Source: Candidatus Levybacteria bacterium CG2_30_37_29
Lineage (GTDB): Bacteria > Patescibacteriota > Microgenomatia > Levybacterales > GWA1-39-11
Length of the DNA: 64,000 nucleotides
Direction: 5' to 3'
Assembly (NCBI GenBank): GCA_001873215.1
Contig: MNYS01000009.1
Location: forward strand, 67,654 to 131,653
Both the position numbers and the translations under genes were made by a program. Position 1 is the first letter of the stretch. Each line of letters opens with the position of its first letter. This document shows positions 5,619 to 53,821 of this stretch, one piece after another. The notes under the pieces were generated by a model. It searched no databases. It saw only the letters and a list, made by a program, of their open reading frames with translations, and was not told the DNA's origin.

Positions 5619-5623
5619 CGTTC

Positions 5624-5962: not shown

Positions 5963-5974
5963 AAGACAATTATA

Positions 5975-11059: not shown

Positions 11060-11061
11060 CA

Positions 11062-28815: not shown

Positions 28816-29907
28816 ATGGGTAATAATTTACGCGGTGTTTTGCGAGCACATTCTGTGAAAAAAGGGAAAACTGTTCTTCTTAGAATTGATACAGACGTTG
28901 ATTTTGTAGGCGGAAAAATTCTTGATGATACAAGACTAACTGCTTGTGACAAAACACTCTCTTATCTTTTGAAAAAAGGTGCGGATGTTATTCTTTTGGG
29001 GCATCTTGGAAGACCAACTGAAAGTCAAAAATCAAAAATCAAAAGTCAAAAGTACGCAGAAGAGTTTAGTTTGGAGCCGGTTGCCAAGTGGTTTGCAAAA
29101 CACTACAAGGGAATTGTTGAAAAAAGAATGATAGGTGAATTTGAAGGATGGGAAATAACTCCGCATCTCCATTTGCTCGAAAATCTCCGTTTTTTTTCAG
29201 GCGAGGAAGCAAACGATAAAGAATTTAGCCGGTCGCTTTCCATTTTGGGAGACTTTTATGTAAATGATGCGTTCGCCGTTTCTCACAGATCCCACGCAAG
29301 CATAGTGGGAATTGCAGAGCTTCTTCCGTCTTATGCCGGATTTCATTTAGAAAAAGAAATTGAAACATTAGGGAACATTTTAAAAGACCCAAAAAGACCG
29401 CTTACGGTACTTATTGGAGGTGCAAAAATTGAAACAAAATTGCCTCTTGTTGAGAAGATGCATAGAATAGCAGACTATGTGTTGGTTGGTGGAGAAATAG
29501 CCGAGCAGGACGCAATGCTTATAAAAGTACAGCACGAAAAAATAAATCCGCCTGCCGGCGGAAAAAAATCTGCGGTTCTGGTTGCCGATAATATATCAAG
29601 CGGCTTGGATATTACCGATAAAGACGCAGAAAATTTTATTCAAATTCTGGACATTTCAAAAACAATTGTTTGGAATGGGCCGGTTGGGAAAATGGGAGTA
29701 ACTGAAACTGAAAGAAATACTTTAAGAATTGCAAAGGCGGTTGCAAGCTCAAAAGCATACACAGTGGTAGGAGGCGGTGATACTCTTGCGCTACTAAAAG
29801 AGCATAATCTTCTTAATAAATTTTCATTTGTTTCAACAGGCGGCGGAGCAATGCTTGAATTTTTATCAGGTAAAGAACTCCCCGGAATCGAAGCGCTGAA
29901 AAAGTAG
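28816..29907 (+). CDS. pgk: phosphoglycerate kinase
   Basis: VLLRIDTDV...LLGHLGRP N-terminal motifs. The start was set at the internal Met to avoid overlap with the PBP gene. Ends ...ELPGIEALKK*. Confidence 0.88.
   Translation: MGNNLRGVLRAHSVKKGKTVLLRIDTDVDFVGGKILDDTRLTACDKTLSYLLKKGADVILLGHLGRPTESQKSKIKSQKYAEEFSLEPVAKWFAKHYKGIVEKRMIGEFEGWEITPHLHLLENLRFFSGEEANDKEFSRSLSILGDFYVNDAFAVSHRSHASIVGIAELLPSYAGFHLEKEIETLGNILKDPKRPLTVLIGGAKIETKLPLVEKMHRIADYVLVGGEIAEQDAMLIKVQHEKINPPAGGKKSAVLVADNISSGLDITDKDAENFIQILDISKTIVWNGPVGKMGVTETERNTLRIAKAVASSKAYTVVGGGDTLALLKEHNLLNKFSFVSTGGGAMLEFLSGKELPGIEALKK
29877..29902. repeat. direct repeat copy A (pgk 3' end, CTCCCCGGAATCGAAGCGCTGAAAA)
   Basis: Same 25-mer recurs at 30984-31008. 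A degenerate copy sits at 31161-31186. Confidence 0.8.
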
Positions 29908-29946
29908 TTTACAATCGTCTAAAAATCGTCTATAATACGGCTATCT

Positions 29947-30981
29947 ATGTTCCTTCCGCAATACAAAATAACTGACAAACTTTTAGCCAATATTAAACGC
30001 ATTAACACGTTAGTTTCCGAGCTTAATAATAAAAGGTTTCCTAGTGTTGTACTTTTAGATCTTGAAAGAACAGCCTGCGAAGTGTCTTCGTATGCTTCAA
30101 CCAGTATAGAAGGTAATCCACTACCACTAACCGAAGTCAAAAAGATTTTAAAGACGACGCCAATAAGCATTCGGGATAGTGAAAAAGAGGTGTTAAATTA
30201 CAACAAAGCTTTAGAAGATTTAAACACAAAGCTTAAGAAAGGCAATGTAAAGCTTTCGCTTGAGCTTATTTTACAAATTCAAAAACATGTTACCAGAGGG
30301 CTTCTTCCCTTTTTTGAAGTTGGCAGTTTTAGAGAAAAGCCAGTAGTTGTAAACGACCCCAAAACACGAAAGGTTGTATATTTGCCTCCTGATGTAAAAG
30401 ACGTAAAATCGCTTATGGAAAATCTTATAACGTTTGTCAAAAACAATAAGGAAAATATCGACCCGCTTATACTTGCCGGGGTATTCCATAAACAAATGGT
30501 AATTATTCATCCTTTCATGGATGGAAACGGTAGGACGACAAGGCTTGCTACAAAGGTGTTACTTTTTGAAATGGGGCTTGATACATTTAATCTTTTTAGT
30601 TTTGAAAATTACTACAACAATAATGTTGCTAATTATTTTCAGACAGTTGGGGAATTTGGAAACTATTATGATTTAGTTGATAAAATTGATTTTACTGTTT
30701 TTCTTGAATATTTTACGGATGGCATAATAGATGAACTTTTAAGGGTTAAAAAAATGCTTCCCGAAGTTTTGGCAACTCCGCAAAGCACCTTAAAACCGTA
30801 TCACGAGAAAGCAATGGAGTTTATCCGAGAGAATGGATTTATTACCGACCGTGATTATTCAAAAATTGTTGACAGGGCAAAAGCAACAAGAGCTCTTGAT
30901 TTTCAAAAGTTAATATCTTTAGGTTTAATTGAGAGAAAAGGGAAAGGAAGAGCAACGTATTACATACTAAAAACAAAGTAA
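29947..30981 (+). CDS. Fic-family protein (AMPylase/Doc-like) with C-terminal winged HTH
   Basis: 344 aa. Canonical Fic motif HPFMDGNGRTTRL. C-terminal KGKGRATYYILK wHTH-like. Confidence 0.85.
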   Translation: MFLPQYKITDKLLANIKRINTLVSELNNKRFPSVVLLDLERTACEVSSYASTSIEGNPLPLTEVKKILKTTPISIRDSEKEVLNYNKALEDLNTKLKKGNVKLSLELILQIQKHVTRGLLPFFEVGSFREKPVVVNDPKTRKVVYLPPDVKDVKSLMENLITFVKNNKENIDPLILAGVFHKQMVIIHPFMDGNGRTTRLATKVLLFEMGLDTFNLFSFENYYNNNVANYFQTVGEFGNYYDLVDKIDFTVFLEYFTDGIIDELLRVKKMLPEVLATPQSTLKPYHEKAMEFIRENGFITDRDYSKIVDRAKATRALDFQKLISLGLIERKGKGRATYYILKTK

Positions 30982-30982
30982 T

Positions 30983-31050
30983 CCTCCCCGGAATCGAAGC
31001 GCTGAAAAGATAATCACTTTATTTTTAGTTTTTCAAGCATGATTTCAAGG
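30983..31050. repeat. direct repeat copy B: degenerate duplicate of the pgk-3'-end/cmk-3'-end convergent junction
   Basis: Carries the pgk-end 25-mer plus ATAATCACTTTATTTTTAGTTTTTCAAG, a degenerate copy of the cmk-like gene 3' end. That part reads in reverse as ...LEKLKIK*, against the genuine ...LEKLKVK*. Confidence 0.75.
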
Positions 31051-31160
31051 GTTTCGCGCGCGAAAACTTTTTGAGAACACTTTTAAAATCCATGCGTAAT
31101 TGAGGTGGCACCTCAAATAGATTCGATTTTCTCCAGCTGCATTGATTTGCCGAAGTGACT

Positions 31161-31214
31161 CTTCTCAGAATCGAAGCGCTGAAAAAATAATCACTTTACT
31201 TTTAGCTTCTCAAG
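31161..31214. repeat. direct repeat copy C: junction copy attached to the genuine cmk 3' end
   Basis: CTTCTCAGAATCGAAGCGCTGAAAAAATAATCACTTTACTTTTAGCTTCTCAAGG. The pgk-end part is degenerate and the cmk-end part is genuine. Confidence 0.75.
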
Positions 31215-31775
31215 GGCGATTTGGAGAGAGTCTTCTTTGTTGTGGTCAAAGGAGTTAATTACCAAATCGTAGTATTTTTTATCAAAATAAACCCAATTAG
31301 GATCGTTACTTGCATAAAGCTTTCTCCATTTTTCCAAATCATTTTTTTCCCGTGTCAGAACCTCTTCTTTTGCATCTGCAACGCTTAACCCCTCACGGTT
31401 TATAAGTCTGTCAATTCTTATATCGACATGATCTTCTCCGTTCTCTTCACATACAACAAGAATTTTAAAAATATTATCAATTCCTTGTGCGTTGAATCCC
31501 GCAAGTTTTGTTTCAAGCACGATTTGTTTGTCTTCTCTAAGCATCTTTTCAAGTTGCTTATCAAACAAAACATCTTCCTCATCCGGTCTTAGATTTGTAT
31601 CTTTTGGGTCAAGTCCAAGTTTTCCCCGAACCGCTTCCCAAAAAATTTCCCCGCCCTCTACGTGTTTCCAATTAAGTTTTTGGGCAAGTAATTTTGCCAG
31701 AGTTGTTGAGCCGGATGCAATGCGACCGGAAATGGTAATAATACGAATATTATCAATCTTTTGAGGAATATCCAT
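31191..31775 (-). CDS. cmk: archaeal-type cytidylate kinase-like P-loop kinase
   Basis: 194 aa. ITISGRIASGSTTLAKLLAQKL...GEIF and YDLVINS match the CMP kinase 2 family. Confidence 0.55.
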   Translation of the reverse strand: MDIPQKIDNIRIITISGRIASGSTTLAKLLAQKLNWKHVEGGEIFWEAVRGKLGLDPKDTNLRPDEEDVLFDKQLEKMLREDKQIVLETKLAGFNAQGIDNIFKILVVCEENGEDHVDIRIDRLINREGLSVADAKEEVLTREKNDLEKWRKLYASNDPNWVYFDKKYYDLVINSFDHNKEDSLQIALEKLKVK

Positions 31776-32854
31776 TACGCGGCAGGACTTAGCTGTTTTC
31801 CAAGAACTATTGTTTCTTCAACGAGTCTGTTTGCATATCCAAATTCATTGTCATACCAAGCAATTACTTTTACCATATCTCCTCCTACAACCTGCGTAAG
31901 AGAAAGGTCAGCAATTGATGAGTGAGGATTTCCGATAACATCTGAACTGACAAGCGGCTCTGTTGTTGTTTCAAGAATTCCTTTTAAATATGTTTGGGAA
32001 GCATCCGTAAGCGCTTTATTCACTTCGTCAACAGTTGTTTGCCGTTTTACAAGAAAAGTAAAATCTGAAAGAGACCCTACGGGAACAGGAACGCGAATTG
32101 CAAGACCGTTAAAAATACCTTTAAGAGATGGAATCGCTTGTGCCGCGGCTTTTGTTGCACCCGTTGATGTTGGGATAATATTCAAGCTTGCGGCGCGGGC
32201 TCTCCTATAATCTTTGTGTCCTCCGTCTTGAAGTCTTTGGTCTGATGTAAACCCGTGAATTGTTGTCATCATAGCTTTTGTTATGCCAAAAGTTTTTTCC
32301 ATGACGTGGGCAACCGGTGCAATACAATTTGTTGTACACGATGCGTTACTGATAATATTCGGAAGTCCTGTTTGATCATTTGTTAAATTTACCCCAAGAA
32401 CAAAAGTTCCCGATGCCGCCTCGTCCTTAAAAGGTGCAGACAAAACAACGGATTTTGCACCGGTTGTAATATGCGGCTGCATTTTTTCTTGGGTTGTAAA
32501 TGCGCCTGTTGATTCAATAACAACATCAACTGCTAAATCGCGCCATGGTAAATTCAGTGGGTCGCGGTCTGAAAAAATAGGAATATCTTTTTGGTCAACG
32601 GAGAGCATTCCTAAAAACTGGGCTTTTGTTTGAAAAGAAAGAGGAGAACTTTCAGGAGCTTTTATTGCTACTGTATGATTTTCCAGCGCGCCATAGACAG
32701 TGTCGTATTTTAAAAGATACATCCATCCTGCAAGGTCAGTGCTTAATCCCGCGTTAATCGCAACAACATCTACTTCGTTTGCAAATTTTTCAAGTATTAC
32801 GCGGTGCGCTACTCTTCCGATCCTGCCATATCCATTTATCGCAACTTTGATCAT
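31775..32854 (-). CDS. gap: glyceraldehyde-3-phosphate dehydrogenase
   Basis: 359 aa. NGYGRIGR Rossmann motif. Active-site ASCTTNC. Confidence 0.9.
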   Translation of the reverse strand: MIKVAINGYGRIGRVAHRVILEKFANEVDVVAINAGLSTDLAGWMYLLKYDTVYGALENHTVAIKAPESSPLSFQTKAQFLGMLSVDQKDIPIFSDRDPLNLPWRDLAVDVVIESTGAFTTQEKMQPHITTGAKSVVLSAPFKDEAASGTFVLGVNLTNDQTGLPNIISNASCTTNCIAPVAHVMEKTFGITKAMMTTIHGFTSDQRLQDGGHKDYRRARAASLNIIPTSTGATKAAAQAIPSLKGIFNGLAIRVPVPVGSLSDFTFLVKRQTTVDEVNKALTDASQTYLKGILETTTEPLVSSDVIGNPHSSIADLSLTQVVGGDMVKVIAWYDNEFGYANRLVEETIVLGKQLSPAA

Positions 32855-32945
32855 TAAGTATTAGGATACGTAAATTTTTGTAAAAATTCAAGAGGATAGA
32901 AATTTTGAGTTTGTCATTTGAATGTTTAATCCACAACCTTGAAGG

Positions 32946-32974
32946 TTGTCAAGATATCGCCAGTTTGGTACAAT
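32946..32974 (+). promoter_or_regulatory. sigma70-like promoter of the rpmH-rnpA-yidC-jag operon
   Basis: TTGTCA at 32946-32951. 17-nt spacer. TACAAT at 32969-32974. The predicted TSS is about 7 nt downstream at the rpmH ATG, so the mRNA may be leaderless. Confidence 0.45.
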
Positions 32975-32981
32975 ACTACCT

Positions 32982-33113
32982 ATGCCGGAAATATTAACCA
33001 AACATAAAAAATTAAAAGGAAAGAGAAAACACGGGTTTTTAGGCAGAAATAAAACCCATTCAGGAAGAAAAGTTATTGCAAGGCGCAGGCTTAAAGGCCG
33101 AGCGAAAATTTAG
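32982..33113 (+). CDS. rpmH: 50S ribosomal protein L34
   Basis: Hand translation MPEILTKHKKLKGKRKHGFLGRNKTHSGRKVIARRRLKGRAKI*, a clear L34. Under 60 aa, so not in the ORF track. Immediately precedes rnpA. Confidence 0.8.
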   Translation: MPEILTKHKKLKGKRKHGFLGRNKTHSGRKVIARRRLKGRAKI

Positions 33114-33425
33114 ATGTTTGAGAAAAAGGCAAGATACTCTTTTAAAAAAGGGTTGCCGAAGAATATAATTGGAAGCCCTTTTTTTGTTTTGCGCTATCAA
33201 GAAAACGGTCTTGCGCATTTTAGGTATGCGGTTGTCGTAAGCAAAAAAGTAGATGCGCGTGCGGTTGGACGAAATAGATTAAGAAGAAGAGTTACGGCTC
33301 TTCTTGAAAAAGAAAATCCTAAAAACCCACCACGGGATTTGGTTTTTTTCTTGAAAAAAGCAATAATTGAACTTAACAATAACCAGATAAAAACAGAAAT
33401 ACAAAAAATATTCTTAAAAATATAA
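33114..33425 (+). CDS. rnpA: ribonuclease P protein component
   Basis: 103 aa. AVGRNRLRRRV basic motif. Position after rpmH. Confidence 0.8.
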   Translation: MFEKKARYSFKKGLPKNIIGSPFFVLRYQENGLAHFRYAVVVSKKVDARAVGRNRLRRRVTALLEKENPKNPPRDLVFFLKKAIIELNNNQIKTEIQKIFLKI

Positions 33426-33427
33426 AT

Positions 33428-34237
33428 ATGGGAGAAATTTTTTCTTTATTGTTCACAAATCCGATAACCAATGTTTTGGTAGCCTTTTATAAATTGTTAA
33501 GCCTTATTGGTGTACCATATGCGCTTGGATTTTCAATAATTCTTTTAACCACTGTCATAAAATTGGTCCTTTGGCCTCTTGTTTCCCTACAAATTAAATC
33601 TGCTGCAAAAATGCAAAAAATGACTCCTCACATGAATGAAATAAAAGAAAAACACAAGGATGATAAGAAAAAACAACAGGAAGCTATAATGATGCTATAC
33701 AAAGAGCATGGCGTAAATCCTGCTGCAGGATGTCTGCCTCTTATTATTCAAATTCCTGTTATTTGGTCTTTATACGGAGTTCTGACAACTGTTGTTGCGG
33801 TAACTTCAATTTCCGCAATTAATAAAATAAATGCAGTGCTTTATTTTCCGTTTTTGCGTTTAACAAGCGTTTGGGATCCGACTTTTCTTGGTTTTTCTCT
33901 TGCTGCTTCACCTGCAACACTTTTATCAGTTGCGCCTATTGCATTATCTGTTCCTCTTATAACAGGGGTTCTTCAGTTTATCCTTTCAAAAATGATGCTT
34001 CCTGAAGAAATGCCAAAAACACAGAAAGACGATTTTCAATCAGCATTCCAAAAACAATCTCTTTTTATCTTCCCCATAATGATTGGATTTTTCTCTTATT
34101 CGCTGCCTATCGGTCTCTCGCTATACTGGAATACTTTTACGGTATTTGGTATACTCCAGCAATATTTGCTTATAGGTCCGGGAGGAACGAAAAATTGGAT
34201 TACAAAAGCAAAAACAATATATGGACGAAATAAATAA
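33428..34237 (+). CDS. yidC: membrane protein insertase YidC (short form)
   Basis: 269 aa. 5-TM 60 kDa-IMP core with conserved WPL...IQIPV...SLYW regions. Confidence 0.85.
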   Translation: MGEIFSLLFTNPITNVLVAFYKLLSLIGVPYALGFSIILLTTVIKLVLWPLVSLQIKSAAKMQKMTPHMNEIKEKHKDDKKKQQEAIMMLYKEHGVNPAAGCLPLIIQIPVIWSLYGVLTTVVAVTSISAINKINAVLYFPFLRLTSVWDPTFLGFSLAASPATLLSVAPIALSVPLITGVLQFILSKMMLPEEMPKTQKDDFQSAFQKQSLFIFPIMIGFFSYSLPIGLSLYWNTFTVFGILQQYLLIGPGGTKNWITKAKTIYGRNK

Positions 34238-34670
34238 AACAATACAAAAAGAAGCAGAGATTCTTTTGGAAAAAGCCGGAATTGAAGGAACAGTTAGAGT
34301 TGAGTCTGCAGAAGAAGGTTTTCAGCTTTTTGTTGATAGCCAGGAAAACGCTCTTCTTATAGGAAAACACGGAAATACTCTTTCTTCATTTGAATACGTT
34401 TTGGCGATGATAGTTACAAAAAAAACAGGTGAATACAAACGTCTTACTATTGAAGTTGGTGGATATAGAAAAGAAAGAGAAGAATACTTGCAGGATTTAG
34501 CAGGAAGGCTAAGAGATGAAGTGCTTGATACTGGAATTGAAAAAACAATAAGAGGTCTTAAGCCGTGGGAGCGAAGACTGGTTCATATGTATCTTTCGGA
34601 AGAACCTGAAATTACAACAGAGTCAACAGGTGAAGACCGCGATAGGGTTTTGGTAATTAAAAAGAAGTGA
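34221..34670 (+). CDS. jag: Jag/KhpB RNA-binding protein (KH + R3H)
   Basis: 149 aa. C-terminal R3H motif (KPWERRLVHMYL). Position after yidC. Confidence 0.75.
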   Translation: MDEINKTIQKEAEILLEKAGIEGTVRVESAEEGFQLFVDSQENALLIGKHGNTLSSFEYVLAMIVTKKTGEYKRLTIEVGGYRKEREEYLQDLAGRLRDEVLDTGIEKTIRGLKPWERRLVHMYLSEEPEITTESTGEDRDRVLVIKKK

Positions 34671-35986
34671 CCAAGAGACTTGAGAAGTTTTTATTCATTC
34701 TGCTTCTTATTTTTGTTCCGGTGCAGACCGGCAAACATTTCTGGCCCTATTTTTCATATATTTCCGGAATAAGAGTTGACTACCTTTCTCCCACTTTTTA
34801 TATAATAGACGGAATTGTTTTATTGCTTTTTTTAACCTTTATTTTCGGTCGTAAGTTTAAAGCAAAGAAAAATACTAATAGCGTCTTCCATTCTCTTAAA
34901 TTATTGCTTTCTCTTGTTTTTATTCTTGTTATTGTTTTGCAGATTTTTATTGCAAGACAAGTTTCAGCTCACGTCCTTTTTGCTCTTCGTATCTGCGAGT
35001 TTTTATTTTTAGGGTATTTTGCTTCAGTTTTTTTAACTCGAAAAAAGCTATCTTTATTGATTTACAGTCTTTCTTTTGGCGGAATTTTTTCGTCTCTTCT
35101 TGCCGTATGGCAATTTTTGAATCAGTCGTCAATTGGTGGAATATTTTATTTTTTTGGAGAAAGAACATTTTCGCAAACAACAATTGGAATAGCAAAAATT
35201 AATATTGGAACAGCGCAATTTTTGCGTCCTTATGCTACTTTTCCTCATCCCAATGTTCTTGCGCTTTTTTTACTCGTTGTGGCAATACTTATTTTGGTAA
35301 GGATTGAATTTGAAAAAAATGTTTTAAGAAAAACTTTTCTTATTGTTTCGGCAATTGCTTCTTCAGCAGGACTTTTTCTGACATTTAGCAGAAGTATAAT
35401 TATTTGCTTTCTTATAATTATTTGTGTGCTATTTTTTCAAAGATTTCATGGAAAAATACAACGCATGCTTTTTGCGTTAGCAATATTACCGGTTACTGTT
35501 CTCTACTTTTTTCTTTCTTTTCCCAGATTTTCAATAACACCATTTTTATTAAAAGATTTGAGTTTACGAAATGACCTTTTAAATATTGGTGTAAATATTT
35601 TTTCCAAGTACCCGGTTTTTGGAGTAGGCCTAAATAACTTTTTTTACTACGAGAACGCGTACCAAAAAATCATTTCTCCGGTTTTTCTTCAACCGATACA
35701 CAATATATATTTTTTGGCTCTTGTGCAGCTTGGCGTTGTAGGATTTATTCCTATTCTAGCCTTTCTTTTTTTCTCGGTTAAAATACTTTTCAAAAAAACT
35801 TTCAGGCAAAAAAACCGCGAAATACGTCAATTTTATTTAGGAGTTTTTTTGCTTTTAATCGCAAGTCTTGTAATCGGATTTTCTGATCATTTTCTTATTA
35901 CTCTTGAACAAGGCATGCTTCTTTTTGCGCTTCTTTTCGGCCTTGTATGGAGCAATATTGGTGGTACATCAAAAGAAAGTAATTAA
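34667..35986 (+). CDS. polytopic membrane protein, O-antigen ligase/polymerase (Wzy_C-like) family
   Basis: 439 aa, more than 10 TM helices with a periplasmic loop. Assigned by architecture rather than by strong motifs. Confidence 0.4.
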   Translation: MTKRLEKFLFILLLIFVPVQTGKHFWPYFSYISGIRVDYLSPTFYIIDGIVLLLFLTFIFGRKFKAKKNTNSVFHSLKLLLSLVFILVIVLQIFIARQVSAHVLFALRICEFLFLGYFASVFLTRKKLSLLIYSLSFGGIFSSLLAVWQFLNQSSIGGIFYFFGERTFSQTTIGIAKINIGTAQFLRPYATFPHPNVLALFLLVVAILILVRIEFEKNVLRKTFLIVSAIASSAGLFLTFSRSIIICFLIIICVLFFQRFHGKIQRMLFALAILPVTVLYFFLSFPRFSITPFLLKDLSLRNDLLNIGVNIFSKYPVFGVGLNNFFYYENAYQKIISPVFLQPIHNIYFLALVQLGVVGFIPILAFLFFSVKILFKKTFRQKNREIRQFYLGVFLLLIASLVIGFSDHFLITLEQGMLLFALLFGLVWSNIGGTSKESN

Positions 35987-35988
35987 TT

Positions 35989-38157: not shown

Positions 38158-38171
38158 AAATCTTAGAAGTA

Positions 38172-41017: not shown

Positions 41018-41022
41018 GATAA

Positions 41023-43734
41023 TTAACGTTTTATTAATTTTATTTTATATTCCTTATCTTGTATAAGAGTATCCTCTATGATAATCATATTTTCCGCAAG
41101 AGTTGCGTTTTCTACTTCTTGAGGAGCATATCCTTGAGGGTAATGAAACCTTAAAACGAATGGATAGTCTTCTGTGCCTGGCTGTTTCACAACAAGCAAG
41201 GAATATGTAAAAAGAGAAAGGTTTTTTGGCATTTCCGCACCATTTTTATAAGTTACATCTATCTTTTGGTCTGTTTGCTTTTTTGTTGTTGTAACAAAGC
41301 CAAATTTTTGCAGTCCGTCTCCTTCGCGATCTACCTCAAGTCCATCCGGAGGCTTGAAATTTTTTGATTCATAGATACGGAAATCCGTAATAGCTGGTGT
41401 AATCGTTTGTTTTTTTCCATCAAGAAAAATATCTTGTAGCCCGCTTTGCGGTGGAGAAATAAAACGTGCGTAAAAAAGATAATCTTTGGATGAAGGTTTT
41501 GAATTTAAAATTAAAAGCGTTGCTTTTGAATTTATTTTGTTGTCTGAAAAATAAACATCGTATTCTACTTTTCTACTTAAAGAAATGTTTGCTTTGTTAA
41601 CGCCGATATTTGCCTCGTTAACAGAAAATGTGTCATAAACAGTGTTATCATTTTTAATCCGTGGATCATAAAATCCTCCAGAAAAAGAATTTACTTGAAA
41701 TACTTTTTGTATAGAAGTTGTGTTAAATGCAAAAAGAATATGTTTTGTCGGAAGAAGTTCGGTAACCAGCTGACCTGTTTTATATATGTTATTTGGGTTT
41801 TCTTCAAGCCTCAAAGACAATTTATTAAATAAAGAAGTTAATAATTCTTTTTTCTTGCTTGTGCCAGGAAAAAAATCTTTATCAATTGTATCTTGAAGAA
41901 ATTCAAAAGTATTATTTTCATCAAGTTTTTTTTGGTAACCCGCGATGTCTATCGGTCCCAAAATTTTTATAAGTCTTCTGACTGCTTCAAAATCAATTGC
42001 TATAACTCCATCGACTTTTTTTCCTGTTTCAAGATTATATAAAAGTGCTGCGGTGCTCGCGCTATTCTCAAAGTCCAATGAAAAGTTACTATCGCGCAAA
42101 TACAAATGTTTTTGTAAATATCGTCTAACTATATATGGTGGTTCAACATGAGCTTTAAGTTGCCCATCACCCGTATATACATCTTCGATAGAAAACTTTG
42201 AAAGCTTGCCCTTGGAAAATGTAGCTTCTCCAATTGATCCGATAAATCCACCGTTAGGTCTTAGCTCTCCATTGTTTTGAAAAAGAAGAAGGTATGTTTT
42301 GTCACGGTCATATCCTAGGATTTGCAAAGCCTGTTCCCCAATGCTTATAAGGCGGGAATATTTTTCGTTAATATAATTATCAAATATTTTTGTGTTGATG
42401 ACTGTTCTTAATTTCTCAACTTCAAAATATAAAAAAGATATATTTGCTATGGTTTGTGAAAAGGTTTTGGCGTCAAGTCCTGAGCCAACCTTTTGAATTG
42501 TATTAAGATTATCAGATGCAAGAATAAGGAGGTCGGATGCATCAGTAATATTTTTAAACTTTGAATATTCTGCATCAATTATTGGAATAGTTCCTAATTT
42601 TCCGAGAAGCAAAATACCCGGTTTTATAATTGAAAGGAGTGTTCTTGCTGATGAAATTGATTTTTTTGCCGCAGAAAAATCATTTTTTTCAAAAGCGCTT
42701 GATGCATTTTTAAATTCAAATATTACAGCCGCCATTGCAATAATATGAATAATTATAAAAACAAAAAAAGAAAATATAAAAATGAAAAGCAATTTCTTTT
42801 TGGAGAAAATAGGAGTTTTGCGTGATGAATGTATTTTTTCATTTTTTGGTATGTCTGCATCGCTTGTTTCAAGAGGAATTGTTGTTTGACCTGCCTGCCG
42901 GTAGGCAAGGTTTTGATCTTTGGTGTTAATACTTTTTTCAAAACCCAAAAAATATTTATCAAGAAATTGAGGCTTTACAACAAGCTTTGAGCTTATCTCC
43001 TCATCTATTTCTGAAAATGATTTAGACGTATCTTTTTCTCCATTTCCTTCTTGAAAATCAATGGACAGATCACTTTCCACTCTTTTTAATAGGTGTGCGG
43101 CAGAAATAACTGTTTGTGGATGACTGTAGAAAAGATAGAAAAAGTTATTATTTTTTCGTGAACCGAATAATATATGATGAATTCCGGTTATTGCATCCGC
43201 AACGCTAATTGGGAAAACGGGAGTTAAGTCGTTTCCTGAGAAAATTATTTTTTTGTTTTTGGTTGCATTTCGAATAATTTTGGCAATATTGGAAGTGGAA
43301 AAAGAAGGACCTTCCCCAAATACATCTCCCAAAAACCCAAAAAACAAATTATGTTCTTTTTTCCATTCCAAAAGAATGTCATAAAATAATTCCCGCAAAC
43401 CGATATCAATAAGAATTAATATTTTAGCATTGTCCTTTTTTAGTTTTGAAAGTACATGTGCAATATATTTTCTATCTTTTTGGTCTTCCAGAAAAATCAA
43501 ACCGTATTCAATTTCATCTTCAAGATTATTTAAAAGATATGAGGAATCAGGAAGTATGCGGTAATAATTTTCCGAAGACGACGCGGCTTCTTGGGAACTC
43601 TCACATACATGGGCTATTTTGAAATCATCTCGTAGCCTTTCAAGCAACACTGGAATAAGAGGATTGGAATTACCGCAAAGTAGAAGAATCGGTTTTTTTT
43701 TAGTATGTTCTTCAATATTGAATGTTTCGGGCAT
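41023..43734 (-). CDS. large bitopic membrane protein: cytoplasmic Rossmann-like N-domain, single TM, large extracytoplasmic domain (possibly DUF4012-like)
   Basis: 903 aa. Single hydrophobic helix near residues 300-330. Extracytoplasmic region contains NGGFIGSIGEATF. No catalytic motifs recognised. Confidence 0.35.
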   Translation of the reverse strand: MPETFNIEEHTKKKPILLLCGNSNPLIPVLLERLRDDFKIAHVCESSQEAASSSENYYRILPDSSYLLNNLEDEIEYGLIFLEDQKDRKYIAHVLSKLKKDNAKILILIDIGLRELFYDILLEWKKEHNLFFGFLGDVFGEGPSFSTSNIAKIIRNATKNKKIIFSGNDLTPVFPISVADAITGIHHILFGSRKNNNFFYLFYSHPQTVISAAHLLKRVESDLSIDFQEGNGEKDTSKSFSEIDEEISSKLVVKPQFLDKYFLGFEKSINTKDQNLAYRQAGQTTIPLETSDADIPKNEKIHSSRKTPIFSKKKLLFIFIFSFFVFIIIHIIAMAAVIFEFKNASSAFEKNDFSAAKKSISSARTLLSIIKPGILLLGKLGTIPIIDAEYSKFKNITDASDLLILASDNLNTIQKVGSGLDAKTFSQTIANISFLYFEVEKLRTVINTKIFDNYINEKYSRLISIGEQALQILGYDRDKTYLLLFQNNGELRPNGGFIGSIGEATFSKGKLSKFSIEDVYTGDGQLKAHVEPPYIVRRYLQKHLYLRDSNFSLDFENSASTAALLYNLETGKKVDGVIAIDFEAVRRLIKILGPIDIAGYQKKLDENNTFEFLQDTIDKDFFPGTSKKKELLTSLFNKLSLRLEENPNNIYKTGQLVTELLPTKHILFAFNTTSIQKVFQVNSFSGGFYDPRIKNDNTVYDTFSVNEANIGVNKANISLSRKVEYDVYFSDNKINSKATLLILNSKPSSKDYLFYARFISPPQSGLQDIFLDGKKQTITPAITDFRIYESKNFKPPDGLEVDREGDGLQKFGFVTTTKKQTDQKIDVTYKNGAEMPKNLSLFTYSLLVVKQPGTEDYPFVLRFHYPQGYAPQEVENATLAENMIIIEDTLIQDKEYKIKLIKR

Positions 43735-43792
43735 GGTAATTTAATTCTAGTGAAAAGTGGACTAATTGTCTATATTAATTGAGGAAAGTGTG

Positions 43793-44224
43793 TTAAATTT
43801 TGTGGTCAAGAGCCAAGTTTACCATTCTGTCTGCTGCAAAATTTTTCTCTCGCGGAATGGCGTGATAAAAAATTTTTCCTTCTAATTTTTCCTCAAGACT
43901 TTTTATGGTAAAAAACAGACTTCTCAAATTCTCATTTTTTATTTTCCAAAGTCCACCCAATTGGGATGCGACAAGTTGTGAATCAAGAAAAAACTGTACG
44001 GTAATATTGTCTTTATCAACATTTTTTACAAGCCATTGGAGCGCAGCAACAACACCTGAATATTCCGCGACATTATTGGTATTTATTCCAATTCTTTTTC
44101 CTTCTTGGTAAATAATTTCGTTTTCCCCGTCTTGCACAACAAATCCATACGCCGCTTCTCCTGGGTTTCCCCGCGACCCGCCATCGGTAAATATAATAAA
44201 ATCCGGTTTGTTAGTTGAATTCAT
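43793..44224 (-). CDS. rnhA: ribonuclease HI
   Basis: 143 aa. FTDGGSRGNPGEAAYGFVV catalytic DxxG...E pattern. Confidence 0.85.
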   Translation of the reverse strand: MNSTNKPDFIIFTDGGSRGNPGEAAYGFVVQDGENEIIYQEGKRIGINTNNVAEYSGVVAALQWLVKNVDKDNITVQFFLDSQLVASQLGGLWKIKNENLRSLFFTIKSLEEKLEGKIFYHAIPREKNFAADRMVNLALDHKI

Positions 44225-45468
44225 ATATTTTTCGTCCTTTGTAATGCTAAATATACCACCATTCCGCTAAAAACAATTCCCTCACAAATAACTGTTATAA
44301 CAGATGCGGCAATATAAGAATAGTGGGGGATATAAAAAATGTTTAAGACAATATTTAAAAACAGTGAAAAAAGATAAAGAAAAATTAAAAACATTTTTTT
44401 GTTTTCTATAACAAGAACCCATTGTAAAATACTTGTTAAGAAAAAAAACGGAAGTGATAATGAAAGTATTCTAATTGGAAGAATTACATAAGAAAGCTCG
44501 GGTTTTAATACGGGTAGTAAGGGTGATAGAAAAAAAACAAAAAATATAAAAACAATCGAGATAAGAGTTAGTAGAAAAGAATAACGCTTAATATCCCGAT
44601 AGAAAAATGATGTAGATTTTTTTTCAAGAAGAAGAGGGTAAATGCTGTTTGCAAAAAAAGCAGGAATAGCAATAAGGAATTCAAAGATGCGATAGGAAAA
44701 TCCATAGATACCAATATCTCCTGTTGGTCTTAAAAATGACAAAATAACAGTGTCGGCTTTTGCATAAATCAAATTAAAAAGAAGAATTAATCCAAGAGGA
44801 GCAGAGGAAAAAAGAAGAGGTTTTGAAAATTTGAAAAAATTGTGTACCTTTTTTTTCACAGGAAATTTTTTCAAAACCGAAAAGAAAAGTAAAACACCGA
44901 ATAAAATTCCGGACATAACATAAGATAAAAGAATAATATAAATATTTTGTAAAAAGGTTCCGGCGAGGACAAAAGAAAGCAATGTTACAGATGTAATAAA
45001 TGAAGGAATAATTGATGTTTTGTAATTTTTTGTTTTCTGCTGAATTGCAGCAAATGAAATTGCAAGCCCTTGAGTAAAAAGAGTAAAAGAATAAATAAGT
45101 ATTCCAATTTTTTCAAACGGTGAAAATCCGATAGAAGATGCTGCGTTATAGGGAAGAACAATCGTTATAAGTCCTATGCAAATATATAAAATTAAAGAAA
45201 GCAAAAACCGTAACAAAATAAGATTTATAAAATTTTTTTCAATCTCCTCGCGTGTTTTTTGGATAAAAATTCCGTTAATTCCAAAATCAACCGCCAAGTA
45301 AAATAGTGATACAAAAGTTACAATTTTTGTAAAACTTCCAAAAAGTGAAATTCCAAGAAAATAGGAAATAAGAAGGGTTACGATTAAAGTTGAAAAACTT
45401 GATAAAAATCTCACGGTTAATTGAGAAATGGTGTTGGTAAAAATATTTCTTAGCCCGAGATTTTCCAT
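44221..45468 (-). CDS. Wzx-like (MOP superfamily) polysaccharide/oligosaccharide flippase
   Basis: 415 aa, about 12 TM helices. N-terminus MENLGLRNIFTNTISQ... typical of polysaccharide biosynthesis proteins. Confidence 0.5.
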   Translation of the reverse strand: MENLGLRNIFTNTISQLTVRFLSSFSTLIVTLLISYFLGISLFGSFTKIVTFVSLFYLAVDFGINGIFIQKTREEIEKNFINLILLRFLLSLILYICIGLITIVLPYNAASSIGFSPFEKIGILIYSFTLFTQGLAISFAAIQQKTKNYKTSIIPSFITSVTLLSFVLAGTFLQNIYIILLSYVMSGILFGVLLFFSVLKKFPVKKKVHNFFKFSKPLLFSSAPLGLILLFNLIYAKADTVILSFLRPTGDIGIYGFSYRIFEFLIAIPAFFANSIYPLLLEKKSTSFFYRDIKRYSFLLTLISIVFIFFVFFLSPLLPVLKPELSYVILPIRILSLSLPFFFLTSILQWVLVIENKKMFLIFLYLFSLFLNIVLNIFYIPHYSYIAASVITVICEGIVFSGMVVYLALQRTKNI

Positions 45469-45470
45469 AA
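45436..45470. repeat. direct repeat (flippase gene 5' end), copy 1
   Basis: GGTAAAAATATTTCTTAGCCCGAGATTTTCCATA. A near-identical copy (one mismatch) sits at 46234-46268. Confidence 0.8.
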
Positions 45471-45503
45471 TTTAGATAGTTATATAGATAAATTGGTGCA
45501 TAG

Positions 45504-45881
45504 TTATTTTCTGGTTTTTGTTATTTTATCATTAGAGATTAAAATCACTGAGTTTGCAATAACGCTTCTTTTAATTTTTGGAAGCTGTTTTTTACAAATG
45601 CTATTAATATGTTTAGGTGCGTTTGATCCTACCGTAATAACAACTATCCCTTTAGTTCCCTCTGCTCGCGCCGTAGTATAACCCAAAAAATCACGATCGA
45701 GAGTTATTAGTGTTTTGCCAAGTTTCTTTGCATGCTTTAAATGAGAAATGTCAGGTTTGTTTAAAAAATTATATTCCAAAGCATGTCTTATTGAATAGCC
45801 TAAAGATCGAAGATATAAAACGGTTGTAAAAGGGAAGCACTCATCAGCGTATATTTGTAGATCCGATTTCTTAGAGGGCAT
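45504..45881 (-). CDS. DUF5615-family PIN-like putative toxin
   Basis: 125 aa. LQIYADECFP...LITLDRDFLGY...GIVVI pattern of DUF5615. Overlaps the upstream DUF433 gene by 11 nt. Confidence 0.55.
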   Translation of the reverse strand: MPSKKSDLQIYADECFPFTTVLYLRSLGYSIRHALEYNFLNKPDISHLKHAKKLGKTLITLDRDFLGYTTARAEGTKGIVVITVGSNAPKHINSICKKQLPKIKRSVIANSVILISNDKITKTRK

Positions 45882-46062
45882 ACTGACCAGTGAATTCTCT
45901 GTTCTTTATTTCATCAAGTGCTTTTTTGATATTTTTTTCCTTGATCCAAGGATAAGAAGTAACAAAATCGGAAACGTTATATCCTTCTTTTAGATAATCA
46001 AGCAAGAAAGCTATTGGAATTTTACTTCCCGGAACCAGATTCTTTTTATTTACTGTTTTCAT
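45871..46062 (-). CDS. DUF433-family putative antitoxin
   Basis: 63 aa. VPGSKIPIAFLLDYLKEGYNVSDFVTSYPWI...KALDEI matches the DUF433 signature. Confidence 0.55.
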   Translation of the reverse strand: MKTVNKKNLVPGSKIPIAFLLDYLKEGYNVSDFVTSYPWIKEKNIKKALDEIKNREFTGQYAL

Positions 46063-46233
46063 ATGAAAATTATATCATATCTTGGATTATATTTCCTGTT
46101 TTGGCCGTGAATTGGGTAAAATTATCCCCTTGTAAGCTAGGTGAGTTGCCTCACGCAAGGCATGGAGCCTGCTTTCACTTATAAGGAGCCCATGTAATTA
46201 TATAATAAGCAATATAAAAAAACAAAGTCAAGG

Positions 46234-46268
46234 GGGTAAAAATATTTCTTAGCCCGAGATTCTCCATA
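46234..46268. repeat. direct repeat (flippase gene 5' end), copy 2 (relic)
   Basis: GGTAAAAATATTTCTTAGCCCGAGATTCTCCATA. Includes a relic ATGGAGAATCTCGGGCTAAG start identical to the flippase N-terminus. Confidence 0.8.
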
Positions 46269-46329
46269 TTGACGTAAATTGAATTATATCAGGAATTAGT
46301 TTGCGCGTTAAAGTTTTTTTCAACCAAAA

Positions 46330-46347
46330 TAGTATTTAAATCCCAGC
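46330..46347. repeat. 18-nt direct repeat flanking the GIY-YIG gene (left)
   Basis: TAGTATTTAAATCCCAGC. The right copy TAGTATTTAAATCCTAGC is at 46672-46689. Confidence 0.6.
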
Positions 46348-46357
46348 TGCAAAAAAA

Positions 46358-46633
46358 TTAATAGATTGCTCTGCAGTTTACAAGATCATCCTTTTGTTCA
46401 TGTGTCAATTTTTTCAATTCTTTTTCCCTAAGCATTGCAAAACTTCTTGTTTGGTATGGTTCAATATGGACAAATTTTACAGGTCTGCGAGTTTCAGTAT
46501 AGTTAGCACCGCGAAATTTACCAATACCGTTGTGTTCTTTTTCTCTCTCAACTATATTATCAGTTTGCCCGGTATAATAACTGCCATCTGAGCATTGGGC
46601 GAGATATACATAAAAGACAGGAGGACGAAGCAT
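46358..46633 (-). CDS. GIY-YIG nuclease family small protein (UPF0213/SLX1-like)
   Basis: 91 aa. VFYVYLAQCSDGSYYTGQTDNIVEREKEHN is a GIY-YIG motif with catalytic R/E/N. Confidence 0.75.
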   Translation of the reverse strand: MLRPPVFYVYLAQCSDGSYYTGQTDNIVEREKEHNGIGKFRGANYTETRRPVKFVHIEPYQTRSFAMLREKELKKLTHEQKDDLVNCRAIY

Positions 46634-46671
46634 AATAAAAGAGTAGCACAGAAAGTAGAGAAATGAAAATT

Positions 46672-46689
46672 AGTATTTAAATCCTAGCA
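46672..46689. repeat. 18-nt direct repeat flanking the GIY-YIG gene (right)
   Basis: 17/18 identical to 46330-46347. Confidence 0.6.
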
Positions 46690-46915
46690 GTGGTAAAATA
46701 ACACCAAATTTATATATGAAAATTCAGGATGATATTTTAAGTTATCGCGAGATGTGCGACGCGGAAAACGTACAGACGCTCCAGCGCGGTATGAATTATC
46801 GTTTAAACCCTCAGTATTCTGTGATTCTTATGTCTCAGAGATCAAATGCGCCCTGTTTTTTAATTTGACTTCTTGGCAACCTGTTTTCCCTAATTAGTAG
46901 TGATATACTGGAGCT

Positions 46916-53723: not shown

Positions 53724-53821
53724 CACAGTAGGAATAGATACATATAACTTCCTACAGCTTCACTAGTCAGTTATACATTCTTCATTATTTTAAACATAAC
53801 TTTTTCTGGTATTATAAGGAT

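Follow-up and report, generated by a model that had tools for sequence, protein, structure and literature searches.

Insertion with long target duplication has been described for restriction-modification gene complexes (Nobusato et al. 2000, Gene 259:99; Furuta, Abe and Kobayashi 2010, NAR 38:2428; PMC2853133), mostly in naturally competent bacteria and by a mechanism that is not known. One- to few-gene addictive or defence units without a mobility gene are there bracketed by direct repeats that are unique to each site, far longer than transposon duplications, variable in length (46-47 bp to ~400 bp) and that can extend from a few to 15 bp into the 3' end of the adjacent gene (PMC2853133). Integrative elements of tRNA and protein genes, considered here as both tyrosine-integrase islands and cis-mobilisable elements without an integrase, are likewise flanked by direct repeats of the gene's 3' end, the duplication restoring the gene, and their tandem accretion can yield serial copies of the site. 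Integron cassettes and the Xer-dependent dif modules of Acinetobacter plasmids also carry one or two genes, often toxin-antitoxin, between short recombination sites served by a recombinase in trans; attC and pdif are conserved, partly palindromic sequences recognised by that recombinase, and integron cassettes mostly lack a promoter. In T4-like phages, free-standing homing endonucleases of the GIY-YIG family (seg, mob) are well documented as small genes between conserved genes; flanking duplications are, to our knowledge, no part of that paradigm.

The sequence analysed here, the window, is a 64,000-nt stretch of the small groundwater bacterium Candidatus Levybacteria bacterium CG2_30_37_29 (contig MNYS01000009.1, positions 67,654-131,653), and all coordinates are positions within it. 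By analogy, the insertions that it appears to hold come closest to those of restriction-modification systems: they are small addictive or defence units without a mobility gene, between long repeats that are unique to each site and variable in length (20-99 nt). They differ in cargo (Fic, type II/IV toxin-antitoxin pairs and a bare GIY-YIG nuclease), in host (a CPR/Microgenomates lineage) and in their repeats, which are on average shorter (median ~45 nt), several falling below the 30-bp threshold of PMC2853133. Unlike integron cassettes and dif modules, they are bounded by copies of local host sequence that share no motif, and each has its own promoter.

Three such insertions had been proposed in a sequence-only reading, and their gene content was borne out by Pfam. 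The Fic gene (29947-30981, plus strand; 344 aa; Fic, 3.8e-18) lies between pgk, which encodes phosphoglycerate kinase (28816-29907, plus strand; PGK, 8.6e-89; called as a 363-aa product in same-species contigs), and the convergent cytidylate kinase-like gene cmk (31191-31775, minus strand; Cytidylate_kin2). The other two lie near a polysaccharide flippase gene (44221-45468, minus strand; Polysacc_synt): a gene pair, here TA (45504-46062, minus strand), encoding the antitoxin-like DUF433 (45871-46062; 2.3e-6) and the PIN-like, toxin-like DUF5615 (45504-45881; 1.4e-13), and a 91-aa GIY-YIG gene (46358-46633, minus strand; 5.3e-13). Thirty independently assembled same-species contigs (JGI, ENA, Logan; 99.1-100% identical to the window) contained every cassette within their span, and an assembly artefact was rejected on this agreement.

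The last 25-30 nt of pgk are duplicated. The live 3' end (repeat A copy 1, 29878-29902, plus strand; LPGIEALK) recurs exactly, at 25/25 positions, just 3' of the Fic gene (copy 2, 30984-31008), where it reads LPGIEALKR followed by a stop. Copy 2 is part of a first junction repeat (30976-31058), which comprises the Fic stop, repeat A copy 2 and a relic cmk 3' end, B' (~31013-31058), ending on the minus strand in ETLEIMLEKLKIK and a stop, which matches the C-terminal end of cmk in relatives L112 and L113 (ESLEITLEKLKIK and a stop). Spacer x (31059-31152) separates it from a second junction repeat (31153-31222), in which a third, decayed pgk end, A' (31161-31185; 88%; LLRIEALKK and a stop), abuts the live cmk 3' end. 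No homologue of spacer x was found in ~2 Mb of loci, and its fold z-score was 0.05. In both 70-nt units (30976-31045 and 31153-31222) the pgk stop (TAA) abuts the cmk stop (TCA), and they read as two copies of the uninterrupted pgk/cmk junction. Since the two are only 81% identical, and B' is closer to the cmk ends of relatives than the live copy is, there are hints that one copy came with donor DNA rather than by duplication in situ.

The Fic promoter/operator (29908-29936, plus strand; TTTACA-17-TATAAT, 11/12 matches) begins at the first base past the pgk stop codon. In an alignment of 68 Fic loci, conservation upstream of the gene starts at the -35 box, and the promoter motif TTGnAAATCGTCTAAtAaTCGTCTATAAT is conserved at 80% or more at most positions. 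The best PDB matches of the Fic protein were FICD and SoFic; the motif HPFMDGNGRTTR was read in its sequence, and its TSIEGN segment aligns with the IEGN of FICD. The protein is predicted to be a class II, self-inhibited AMPylase of the FICD/SoFic type with its own, autoregulated promoter, and the label 'toxin' was dropped for a gene that is not one of a two-gene toxin-antitoxin pair.

At the flippase gene, the duplicated sequence is the first 33 nt plus one upstream base. The live copy (45436-45469, minus strand) and a relic upstream of the TA pair (46235-46268, minus strand), consisting of the ATG and 10 codons severed from the gene, match at 33/34 positions, and the single mismatch is synonymous (GAA/GAG). 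The TA promoter (46202-46231, minus strand; TTGACT-18-TATTAT, 10/12 matches) lies immediately on the inner side of the relic; the promoters of the Fic and TA cassettes both abut the inner edge of a repeat. The presumed original flippase promoter (46283-46311, minus strand; TTAACG-17-TG-TATAAT, 10/12 matches) is now upstream of the relic. The repeats on the 3' (46326-46347) and 5' (46667-46688) sides of the GIY-YIG gene match at 20/22 positions, with a 14-nt exact core, and extend to 33 nt at 79%.

Repeat significance was assessed by simulating the window 60 times under a third-order Markov model, with +1/-2 scoring. No local direct repeat scoring at least 25 arose in the simulations; scores of 25, 35 and 31 place the Fic and TA repeats far beyond chance. 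The GIY-YIG repeat scores 16, a level at which ~0.45 pairs per window would be expected within 1.5 kb, so that it is weak by this measure. When gene flanks were aligned, it scored 34 against a 99th percentile of 35 for 1241 ordinary ORFs and 23 for the reversed sequence of its own flanks, a significance of roughly p = 0.01 that leaves it moderately supported and borderline. The proposed bracketing by repeats was therefore firm for Fic and TA (25, 70 and 34 nt) and moderate for GIY-YIG. The sequences support reading all three cassettes as real insertions bracketed by copies of their targets.

Comparison with related lineages showed that the pgk/cmk junction carries different genes in five of them: Fic (L111), a second pgk with a GNAT gene (L112), a 227-aa ORF (L113-115), a 182-aa ORF (L022) and a UPF0102 nuclease (L024). 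In L022, a 523-aa gene adjoins the flippase gene directly, without TA, GIY-YIG or hydrolase. The cargo is thus not vertically inherited in all relatives, some of which lack it at the corresponding sites. The pgk of L111 is 86% identical to that of the window, and Fic and pgk are equally diverged there (~83-87% nt), so the Fic insertion is old and has been inherited vertically since. Fic homologues 72-78% identical to that of the window had 48 neighbour contexts among 55 loci, and their identity matrix carried no taxonomic signal; one Levybacteria Fic is 86% identical to a Daviesbacteria copy and 75% to another Levybacteria copy. For none of the three cassettes could an empty site be identified at the nucleotide level, as all same-species contigs are filled and the next relatives are too divergent. 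Target duplication is therefore argued here from internal evidence, whereas the restriction-modification cases were proven with empty-site genomes (PMC2853133).

Related cassettes bear the same architecture in many other Microgenomates genomes. Repeats of 24-60 nt were found in the flanks of 5 of 73 Fic loci (the window, L182, L136, L164 and L197) and of 8 of 1241 ordinary ORFs (0.6%; Fisher p = 4e-4, the two sets having slightly different flank windows and cut-offs, at least 48 against at least 40); ~90% of Fic loci had no detectable flanking repeat. At all five loci the left copy stops 46-74 nt short of the ATG, immediately outside the conserved promoter. A second DUF433/DUF5615 pair (L199) lies within a 49-nt repeat. 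A wider census of ~2 Mb yielded repeat-bracketed cargo mostly of toxin-antitoxin type (VapBC, Doc, BrnA-like, AbiEii, HigBA), including VapBC inside a 99-nt duplicated cmk 3' end (L098); a separate search of pgk/cmk ends found VapBC inside a 26-nt duplicated pgk 3' end (L030), where the relic retains the original terminus, LEALT and a stop. Three filled/empty indels with cargo of other types, called by eye as hydrolase-like and uracil-DNA-glycosylase-like, had no repeats. Convincing terminal inverted repeats were absent from the window's three cassettes.

The favoured explanation for these observations, held at a probability of roughly 0.6, is that self-contained cassettes entered the chromosome by insertions, each duplicating 22-70 nt of target. 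Each cassette would comprise its own promoter and one or two selfish or defence-type genes; one repeat copy would preserve the neighbouring gene and the other would be left as a relic beyond the cargo. Separate events would have placed Fic into the last codons of pgk, TA into the first 33 nt of the flippase gene and GIY-YIG ~15 nt upstream of the flippase promoter, and a second event at the pgk/cmk junction would have duplicated 70 nt around spacer x. Imported DNA would have been inserted by the recombination or repair functions of the host and not by a cassette-encoded enzyme; candidate forms are a filled-in staggered break, a template switch, or homologous joining on one side combined with illegitimate joining, following DNA uptake. 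A shared integration route, as had been proposed, is a reasonable inference because the same architecture and cargo families recur at unrelated Microgenomates sites, though its mechanism is conjectural. That this route targets gene boundaries was an overstatement, as the duplicated target is often intergenic in other genomes (L164, L136, L182, L199). Genes abut in this compact genome, so a duplicated target is the end of a neighbouring gene; with zero spacing between pgk and cmk, any tolerated insertion overlaps a gene end and the duplication keeps the gene intact. Gene-end locations are more likely to be what selection leaves in such a genome, a simpler account than targeting.

The strongest alternative, though an unlikely one, is that the repeats are attachment sites for site-specific or short-homology recombination in trans. 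A circular cassette with one gene-end copy would integrate into the matching gene end through a tyrosine recombinase encoded elsewhere or through RecA acting on 25-60 nt of homology, near the minimal length for RecA-dependent recombination, and repeated events would stack cassettes between site copies as in tandem accretion. Three tandem pgk-end copies delimiting Fic and spacer x would fit such a process, as would an A' island found also directly 3' of the Fic end in L196, with different DNA on both sides, reuse of the pgk 3' end across several Levybacteria (L030, L092, L112) and of the cmk end (L098), and a 45-nt repeat that begins in a tRNA 3' end (L118). The earlier statement that no integrase or transposase is local held: none is carried by or adjoins the three cassettes, none was found around them within 26-50 kb in the window, and the nearest recombinase, a Xer-like tyrosine recombinase at 61242-62108, would be a candidate for action in trans. 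Among the repeat-flanked cassettes examined elsewhere, only L197 had a recombinase nearby, a large serine recombinase ~4 kb away; we know of no long repeats made by that class. Unlike integrative elements, moreover, cassettes of one Fic family lie between unrelated repeats at five sites, 17 repeats compared had no common motif, and no conserved attP-like segment was found outside the Fic promoter and coding sequence. Recombination in trans would also leave a cassette's first acquisition of a new target copy unexplained.

Nuclease-driven homing is less probable again. The cargo nuclease (GIY-YIG or PIN-like) would cut alleles lacking the cassette close to its insertion point, repair templated by a filled allele would copy the cassette in, and the duplicated, slightly altered gene end would shield the filled allele from recutting. 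As with seg and mob, the GIY-YIG gene is a small gene between conserved genes, and it is also tRNA-associated: these genomes hold many small GIY-YIG genes, which repeatedly lie immediately 5' of a tRNA gene, relics of a tRNA 5' end occur upstream of the gene in L154, L170 and L185, and the window has a second copy, flanked by tRNA-Arg and tRNA-Ser. The protein, however, is a bare UPF0213/YhbQ-like catalytic domain (PDB matches 1ywl and 1zg2) without a DNA-recognition domain, the same scar surrounds Fic, Doc and AbiEii cassettes, which are not DNA nucleases, and the filled and empty alleles that homing needs to coexist were not seen in the 30 contigs of the population. Local tandem duplication and later divergence, the cargo being inherited vertically (or, if the GIY-YIG repeat is taken by itself, a chance match at the expectation given above), is very improbable and for Fic and TA largely refuted: the equally diverged Fic of L111 and some census pairs that are plain tandem paralogues (L024, L066, PBP pairs) would suit it, but the DNA that the repeats enclose bears no relation to the flanks and has its own promoter and foreign-type genes, relatives with 73-75% pgk identity hold other cargo at the site, Fic lacks conserved context or taxonomic signal, and the repeats end sharply at 25-34 nt without grading into diverged paralogous sequence.

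The description of the integration route as uncharacterised for these cargo types was an overstatement, since papers of 2000 and 2010 describe the phenomenon itself in restriction-modification systems (PMC2853133); what is new here is the cargo types and the host lineage only. The scar left by these cassettes matches a little-studied mode of insertion so far described only for restriction-modification genes.

The Fic gene (29947-30981, + strand) lies between duplicated ends of its neighbor, pgk. The last 25 nt of pgk (29878-29902) recur as an exact copy at 30984-31008, 3 bases past the Fic stop codon, and a third, decayed copy (A') is found at 31161-31185. The two downstream copies sit within a 70-nt unit present at 30976-31045 and again at 31153-31222 with 81% identity, and the start of this repeat (AAGTAA/AAGTGA) overlaps the Fic stop codon. 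In both units the pgk C-terminus is read in frame to its stop (LPGIEALKR-TAA and LLRIEALKK-TAA), and that stop adjoins the stop and C-terminus of the reverse-strand cmk gene (…LEKLKIK and …LEKLKVK, each followed by its stop). As each copy is a pgk end abutting a cmk end, the window therefore contains two images of the uninterrupted pgk/cmk junction, with zero intergenic spacing. The Fic promoter, TTTACA-17-TATAAT, begins at the base after the pgk stop codon.

In L196, one of the related loci (mostly from Microgenomates) with which the window was compared, the Fic gene is 94% identical and the decayed A' copy directly adjoins its end. The second duplication, spaced by 177 nt around spacer x (31059-31152), is tentatively suggested to be later than the Fic insertion, the order of events being tentative because the window's right copy matches only 6/8 bases. 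The spacer was rejected as a repeated element or structured RNA, since no homologue was found and its fold z-score of 0.05 indicated no notable fold. The last codons of the Fic gene in L196 are themselves broken by an insert of ~87 nt (1113-1200) with CTAAG on both sides, which looks like a miniature transposable element that duplicated 5 nt of its target.

Assignment to class II was examined by seeking, together in one chain, the active site HxFx(D/E)GNGRxxR and an inhibitory motif (S/T)xxxE(G/N) near the N-terminus, and both are present: the active-site motif HPFMDGNGRTTR and the N-terminal STSIEGN were read from the sequence and aligned to FICD. FICD and SoFic gave the best alignments of the protein. 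By these motifs it is predicted to be a self-inhibited class II Fic of the FICD/SoFic AMPylase type and not a two-gene toxin-antitoxin module; the sequence-only reading had described toxin cassettes, a label that does not fit Fic.

On the flippase side, the first 34 nt of the flippase region (1 upstream base, the ATG and ten codons) have a 33/34 copy at 46235-46268, beyond a DUF433/DUF5615 pair (45504-46062, - strand). The two genes of the pair are small and co-directional with an 11-nt overlap, and their Pfam matches (DUF433 and DUF5615/PIN_10) are to an antitoxin and a toxin family, so that they qualify as a predicted type II toxin-antitoxin pair. Their promoter, TTGACT-18-TATTAT, lies directly inside the relic flippase start, and a further good promoter match, on the upstream side of the relic, presumably served the flippase originally. 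The order on the minus strand is repeat, GIY-YIG, repeat, old flippase promoter, relic 5' end, toxin-antitoxin promoter, DUF433, DUF5615, live 5' end, flippase. The GIY-YIG gene (46358-46633, - strand) is bracketed by 46326-46347 and 46667-46688, which match at 20/22 positions. The catalytic domain covers the whole 91-aa chain, the closest solved structures are those of the UPF0213 proteins 1ywl and 1zg2, and the protein is a bare catalytic domain of the UPF0213/YhbQ type. A 50-aa ORF (46716-46868) that matches no family, together with an alpha/beta hydrolase gene (46916-47644), fills the rest of the 2.2-kb stretch between a 523-aa gene and the flippase, and both may be further insertions or remnants. 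The entire stretch is absent in L022, where the flippase directly adjoins the 523-aa gene and the hydrolase, GIY-YIG and toxin-antitoxin genes are all missing between them.

A second small GIY-YIG gene is present in the window at 62896-63162, between tRNA-Arg(GCG) and tRNA-Ser(CGA). GIY-YIG ORFs of ~72-88 aa within 10 nt of a tRNA 5' end, or overlapping it, occur in four other Microgenomates loci (L154 121-378, L170 6756-7010, L185 7685-7930 and L173 1924-2142, beside tRNAs Glu, Glu, Asn and Lys, respectively); in the first three, a relic of the tRNA 5' end lies upstream, split by a hairpin-like insert of ~40-50 nt. The window also contains a group I intron at 53487-53675 (Rfam, 55 bits), within the region 53466-53725. 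Its flanks look like tRNA halves (5' side GCGGGGTAGTG…, 3' side …GGTGCGATTCCTTGCCCCGCA), and ARAGORN made no call for an intron-split tRNA at 53466-53725.

The cargo genes, their neighbors and the bracketing repeats were confirmed by Pfam and repeat matches to be as first described. Local repeat scores of 25 or more did not arise in 60 Markov simulations, and the Fic and toxin-antitoxin repeats score 25-35. The GIY-YIG repeat scores 16, with ~0.45 such pairs expected per window within 1.5 kb, and its flank-alignment score is 34, just under the 99th percentile (35) of 1241 ordinary ORFs. Two of the cases are solid and that of GIY-YIG is moderate. Each cassette has its own promoter, a strong match, which adjoins a repeat on its inner side. 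At the cassette ends in the window there are weak AT-rich inverted matches only, and none of them makes a convincing terminal inverted repeat.

From dnaN/dnaA (353-3037) onward, the window encodes glycolysis, cell-wall and polysaccharide functions in tightly packed genes. When species representatives were scanned, the genomes closest to it were Levybacteria and other Microgenomates of the Candidate Phyla Radiation. Thirty independently assembled contigs (JGI, ENA, Logan) are 99.1-100% identical to it, and exact-protein look-ups for Fic, pgk and the flippase returned only contigs in this identity range, with the cassettes present within each span; the same look-ups gave no record of a 395-aa reading of pgk. 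As many independent assemblies made by different assemblers agree, an assembly artefact was rejected as the source of the duplicated gene ends. A contig break at 46316 (L108/L109) was likewise rejected as a sign of a strain free of GIY-YIG, the contig ends being identical to the window with no variant junction. The absence of a local integrase or transposase, as first claimed, was upheld: Pfam searches of all ORFs at positions 26-50 kb found no transposase, integrase or other mobile-element gene there, and no intI was found in the window. The sole recombinase found, and the nearest, is a 288-aa Xer-type tyrosine recombinase (61242-62108; Phage_integrase and SAM-like N-terminal domains), whose gene adjoins a DivIC-like gene and a tRNA cluster. 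Rfam matches in the window are tRNAs and the one group I intron, with none at the cassettes. Most other local direct repeats in the window come from tandem GH130 (mannoside phosphorylase-like) paralogues at 9194-13005, which share segments such as 10523-10575 and 12484-12536 (47/53). A 112-aa protein of the DUF4258 family, a proposed toxin, is encoded at 5624-5962 by a single gene that separates a glycosyltransferase gene from a PMT_2 gene, and no flanking repeat was detected there.

The same scar was found in other loci. When the flank ending 45 nt before the Fic ATG was aligned to the flank starting at the stop codon in 73 Fic loci, highly significant direct repeats were obtained in five (scores 48-89 against a null maximum of 27), and two further loci were borderline. 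The repeats measure 24-25 nt in the window, 60 nt in L182 (where the cargo is Fic with a 73-aa ORF), 53 nt in L136, 45 nt in L164 and 48 nt in L197, in which the right copy is the 3' end of a convergent neighbor gene. These five insertions have five unrelated repeats, and the left copy of each stops 46-74 nt short of the ATG, immediately beyond the limit of the conserved promoter. Comparable flank repeats surround 8 of 1241 ordinary ORFs in PBP-anchored loci (0.64%; Fisher p = 4e-4 against 5/73 for Fic), a set for which the flank windows differed slightly and the cut-off was 40; no fewer than two of the eight are toxin-antitoxin genes. The Fic cassette of L197, with its diverged repeat, has Replic_Relax, TraG/VirD4-like and large serine recombinase genes as neighbors (1474-7036) and looks to be inside a conjugative or integrative element.

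Other small cargo bracketed by repeats was also recovered in a local direct-repeat census of ~2 Mb of Microgenomates DNA, from which tandem paralogues were set aside. The cargo was mainly toxin-antitoxin genes: PIN with a MazE-type antitoxin (VapBC) and a CopG/BrnA-type antitoxin unit in L098, Doc with its antitoxin in L056, AbiEii in L189 and L120, and a Gp49/HTH (HigBA-like) pair in L118. A relative of the window's toxin-antitoxin pair in L199 (toxin 70% identical) has a 49-nt repeat; the distance from the end of its left copy to the antitoxin start is 177 nt, against 172 nt in the window. In L098 the last 99 nt of cmk are present twice (94/99), one copy on either side of VapBC. In L030 an RHH/PIN pair follows pgk; the displaced relic, reading …GEKLPGLEALT and stop, keeps the original pgk terminus, and the live gene now extends as …LEALKARPTSPATLA and stop. 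These two loci are close parallels of the window's cases. In L092 a 51-nt relic of the pgk end lies beyond a Trp-repressor-like gene. Over 17 cases the repeats span 20-99 nt (median about 45; 22, 25, 34 and 70 nt in the window), several of those in other genomes are intergenic, and no att-like motif is common to the 17, shared k-mers not exceeding the shuffled expectation. Multi-copy intergenic elements distinct from these site-specific duplications were seen in L155, where a ~190-nt unit has three copies (161-349, 2600-2791 and 5897-6083), the second ~115 nt upstream of Fic, and in L021, where a 34-41 nt GTTTTGAGATTTGCG-type element occupies three intergenic sites (2809-2842, 5228-5268 and 8632-8672).

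The window's Fic protein is identical to NCBI COX79_02530 from a Candidatus Levybacteria genome, and more than 100 Fic protein clusters, all of ~344 aa and 73-78% identical to it, are distributed over Levy-, Davies-, Roizman- and Gottesmanbacteria. One Levybacteria Fic shares 86% identity with a Daviesbacteria copy and 85.5% with one from Gottesmanbacteria, against 75% with another Levybacteria copy; the housekeeping PBP is ~50-56% identical between these lineages. The Fic identities ignore taxonomy, as would be expected of a horizontally mobile unit. Among 80 loci from a metagenome scan, 55 had both neighbors available, and these displayed 48 distinct contexts. Conservation starts at the -35 box, with nothing conserved upstream, and the sharply bounded promoter/operator TTGnAAATCGTCTAAtAaTCGTCTATAATacGtCTAT travels with Fic. 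Three direct CGTCTA(T/A)A repeats lie between -35 and +1 (29908-29946 in the window; the same position in 68 Fic loci) and are probably an operator for autoregulation by the Fic C-terminal domain. A phage vehicle was rejected, as both the protein and the operator motif are absent from a viral contig collection. In a subset of loci (L118, L159, L162, L171, L116, L149 and others) a conserved element of ~105 nt, …TTGTACTTTGCTATGCATTTTTTAGTCCAAATGTATAAGCAAATTC.GAGTTTAG.CCGTCCTGAAGGAATA…GTCTGTTTAAGGTACTA, follows the Fic stop directly; it has no Rfam match, and in L118 it occurs twice (2850-2956 and 5040-5146), bracketing Fic and two ORFs.

The cargo at the pgk/cmk junction differs in each related lineage recovered, and is not inherited in all relatives. 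It is Fic in L111 (pgk 86% identical to the window's), a second full pgk and a GNAT acetyltransferase in L112 (75%), an unannotated 227-aa ORF in L113-L115 (73%), a 182-aa ORF in L022 (62%) and a UPF0102 nuclease-like gene in L024 (58%). The tandem pgk genes of L112 (2524-4733) are both complete (361 and 362 aa), with an 83-nt 3'-end repeat (72/83), and are followed by GNAT and then cmk. Fic and pgk of L111, whose contig ends inside Fic, are equally diverged from those of the window (~83-87% nt); the Fic insertion therefore predates that split and has been inherited vertically since. Among same-species contigs and relatives, no empty site with nucleotide-level similarity was found for the window's cassettes; the best pgk relatives (86%, 75% and 73%) mark the site as variable and are too diverged for base-level alignment of an empty site. 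Nor was a cassette-free counterpart of the loci with repeat-flanked cassettes elsewhere found among the compared sequences. Indirect support for repeats that were once a single copy comes from the two 70-nt units, each of which retains the abutting pgk and cmk stops, and from the original pgk terminus in the L030 relic. Three filled/empty indels between loci ~80% identical were looked at closely, and serve as a contrast only because their cargo is not toxin-antitoxin (a hydrolase-like and a uracil-DNA-glycosylase-like ORF, both by eye, and a pair of unannotated ORFs) and flanking repeats are absent.

The repeats are variable, unrelated between sites and copies of local sequence, with no mobility gene or terminal structure, and for these reasons target duplication at insertion is preferred over a shared attachment site. 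Each insertion would copy its target, one copy keeping the neighbor gene intact. From its sequence features, the scar in the window appears to match insertion with long target duplication, described for restriction-modification systems by Nobusato et al. (2000) and Furuta et al. (2010) (PMC2853133). In those cases the repeats are long, vary between 46-47 bp and about 400 bp, in some instances overlap the 3' end of a gene by 2-15 bp and are accompanied by no other mobile element; the cases are mostly from naturally competent species, and the mechanism is not known (PMC2853133). The present repeats likewise exceed transposon duplications and vary in length (several are below the 30-bp cut-off of Furuta et al.), are site-specific with no common recombination motif, and enclose cassettes with no mobility gene in or next to the insert. 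Restriction-modification systems are also addictive units, but the cargo differs, being Fic, DUF433/DUF5615 and GIY-YIG here and PIN/MazE, Doc and AbiEii elsewhere. The literature collection searched contained no report of long target duplication for Fic, toxin-antitoxin or GIY-YIG cargo, nor for CPR bacteria.

The first suggestion had been of a possible shared route, targeted to gene boundaries and uncharacterised for these cargo types. It is partly supported: the recurrent architecture is real and a shared route is plausible. The phenomenon has the precedent of restriction-modification cargo (PMC2853133), and is a known, mechanistically unexplained kind of gene mobility. The location at gene boundaries is, in our opinion, a selection effect and not targeting, because several repeats elsewhere are intergenic and because pgk and cmk touch here, so that a tolerated insertion must overlap a gene end and a duplication preserves that gene.

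One competing explanation is still considered live: a homology-anchored or site-specific process, in which a circle carrying one repeat copy re-integrates at a conserved gene end or, in a second form, imported DNA is joined by one-sided homologous and illegitimate events. It draws on features that sit less easily with simple duplication in place: the identity of only 81% between the two 70-nt junction copies, a relic cmk end (B') that is closer to the cmk termini of relatives than the live end is, A' as a conserved island with unrelated DNA around it both in the window and in L196, and reuse of the pgk end in several Levybacteria; the unrelated repeats at different sites are better accommodated by target duplication. 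An islet carried by its own integrase into a gene 3' end does not fit, as the cassettes have no integrase and the five Fic sites, in place of a common att core, have five unrelated repeats. Integron gene cassettes would be promoterless, lie near intI and end in a conserved attC-type site; here no motif is common to the boundaries, each cassette has its own promoter, and no intI was found in the window. Transposons, insertion sequences and MITEs are at odds with duplications that are long and variable instead of fixed and short, and with the lack of convincing terminal inverted repeats. A free-standing GIY-YIG homing endonuclease does not agree with a 91-aa protein that has no joined DNA-binding domain.

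A broader form of target duplication may be proposed for the Microgenomates, to which a probability of roughly one in four is given: a dedicated, transposase-free insertion pathway (host repair or a recombinase acting in trans) that leaves target duplications of 20-100 nt and carries toxin and defence cassettes with their own promoters (Fic, VapBC, Doc, AbiE, DUF433/DUF5615 and GIY-YIG) from one class-level lineage to another. Conserved ends of genes, the pgk 3' terminus among them, would be reusable landing pads where cassettes pile up between gene-end copies.

In practical terms, duplicated gene ends beside small cargo in metagenome-assembled genomes are real and not assembly errors. The related loci provide dozens of natural cases of differing ages, and the pgk/cmk ends in Levybacteria are one recurrent site at which alleles with and without the cassette could be set side by side, or the insertion retraced. 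CPR genomes are not known to carry many classical mobile elements. The scar bears on how small addictive or defence genes lacking any mobility function pass from one genome to another. Insertion with long target duplication, the one route described as leaving such a scar, has gone without a mechanism since 2000, and its documented cases were all restriction-modification systems. The scar is now seen around Fic, several toxin-antitoxin families and a GIY-YIG nuclease in the compact genomes of ultra-small CPR bacteria, which points to a wider phenomenon.
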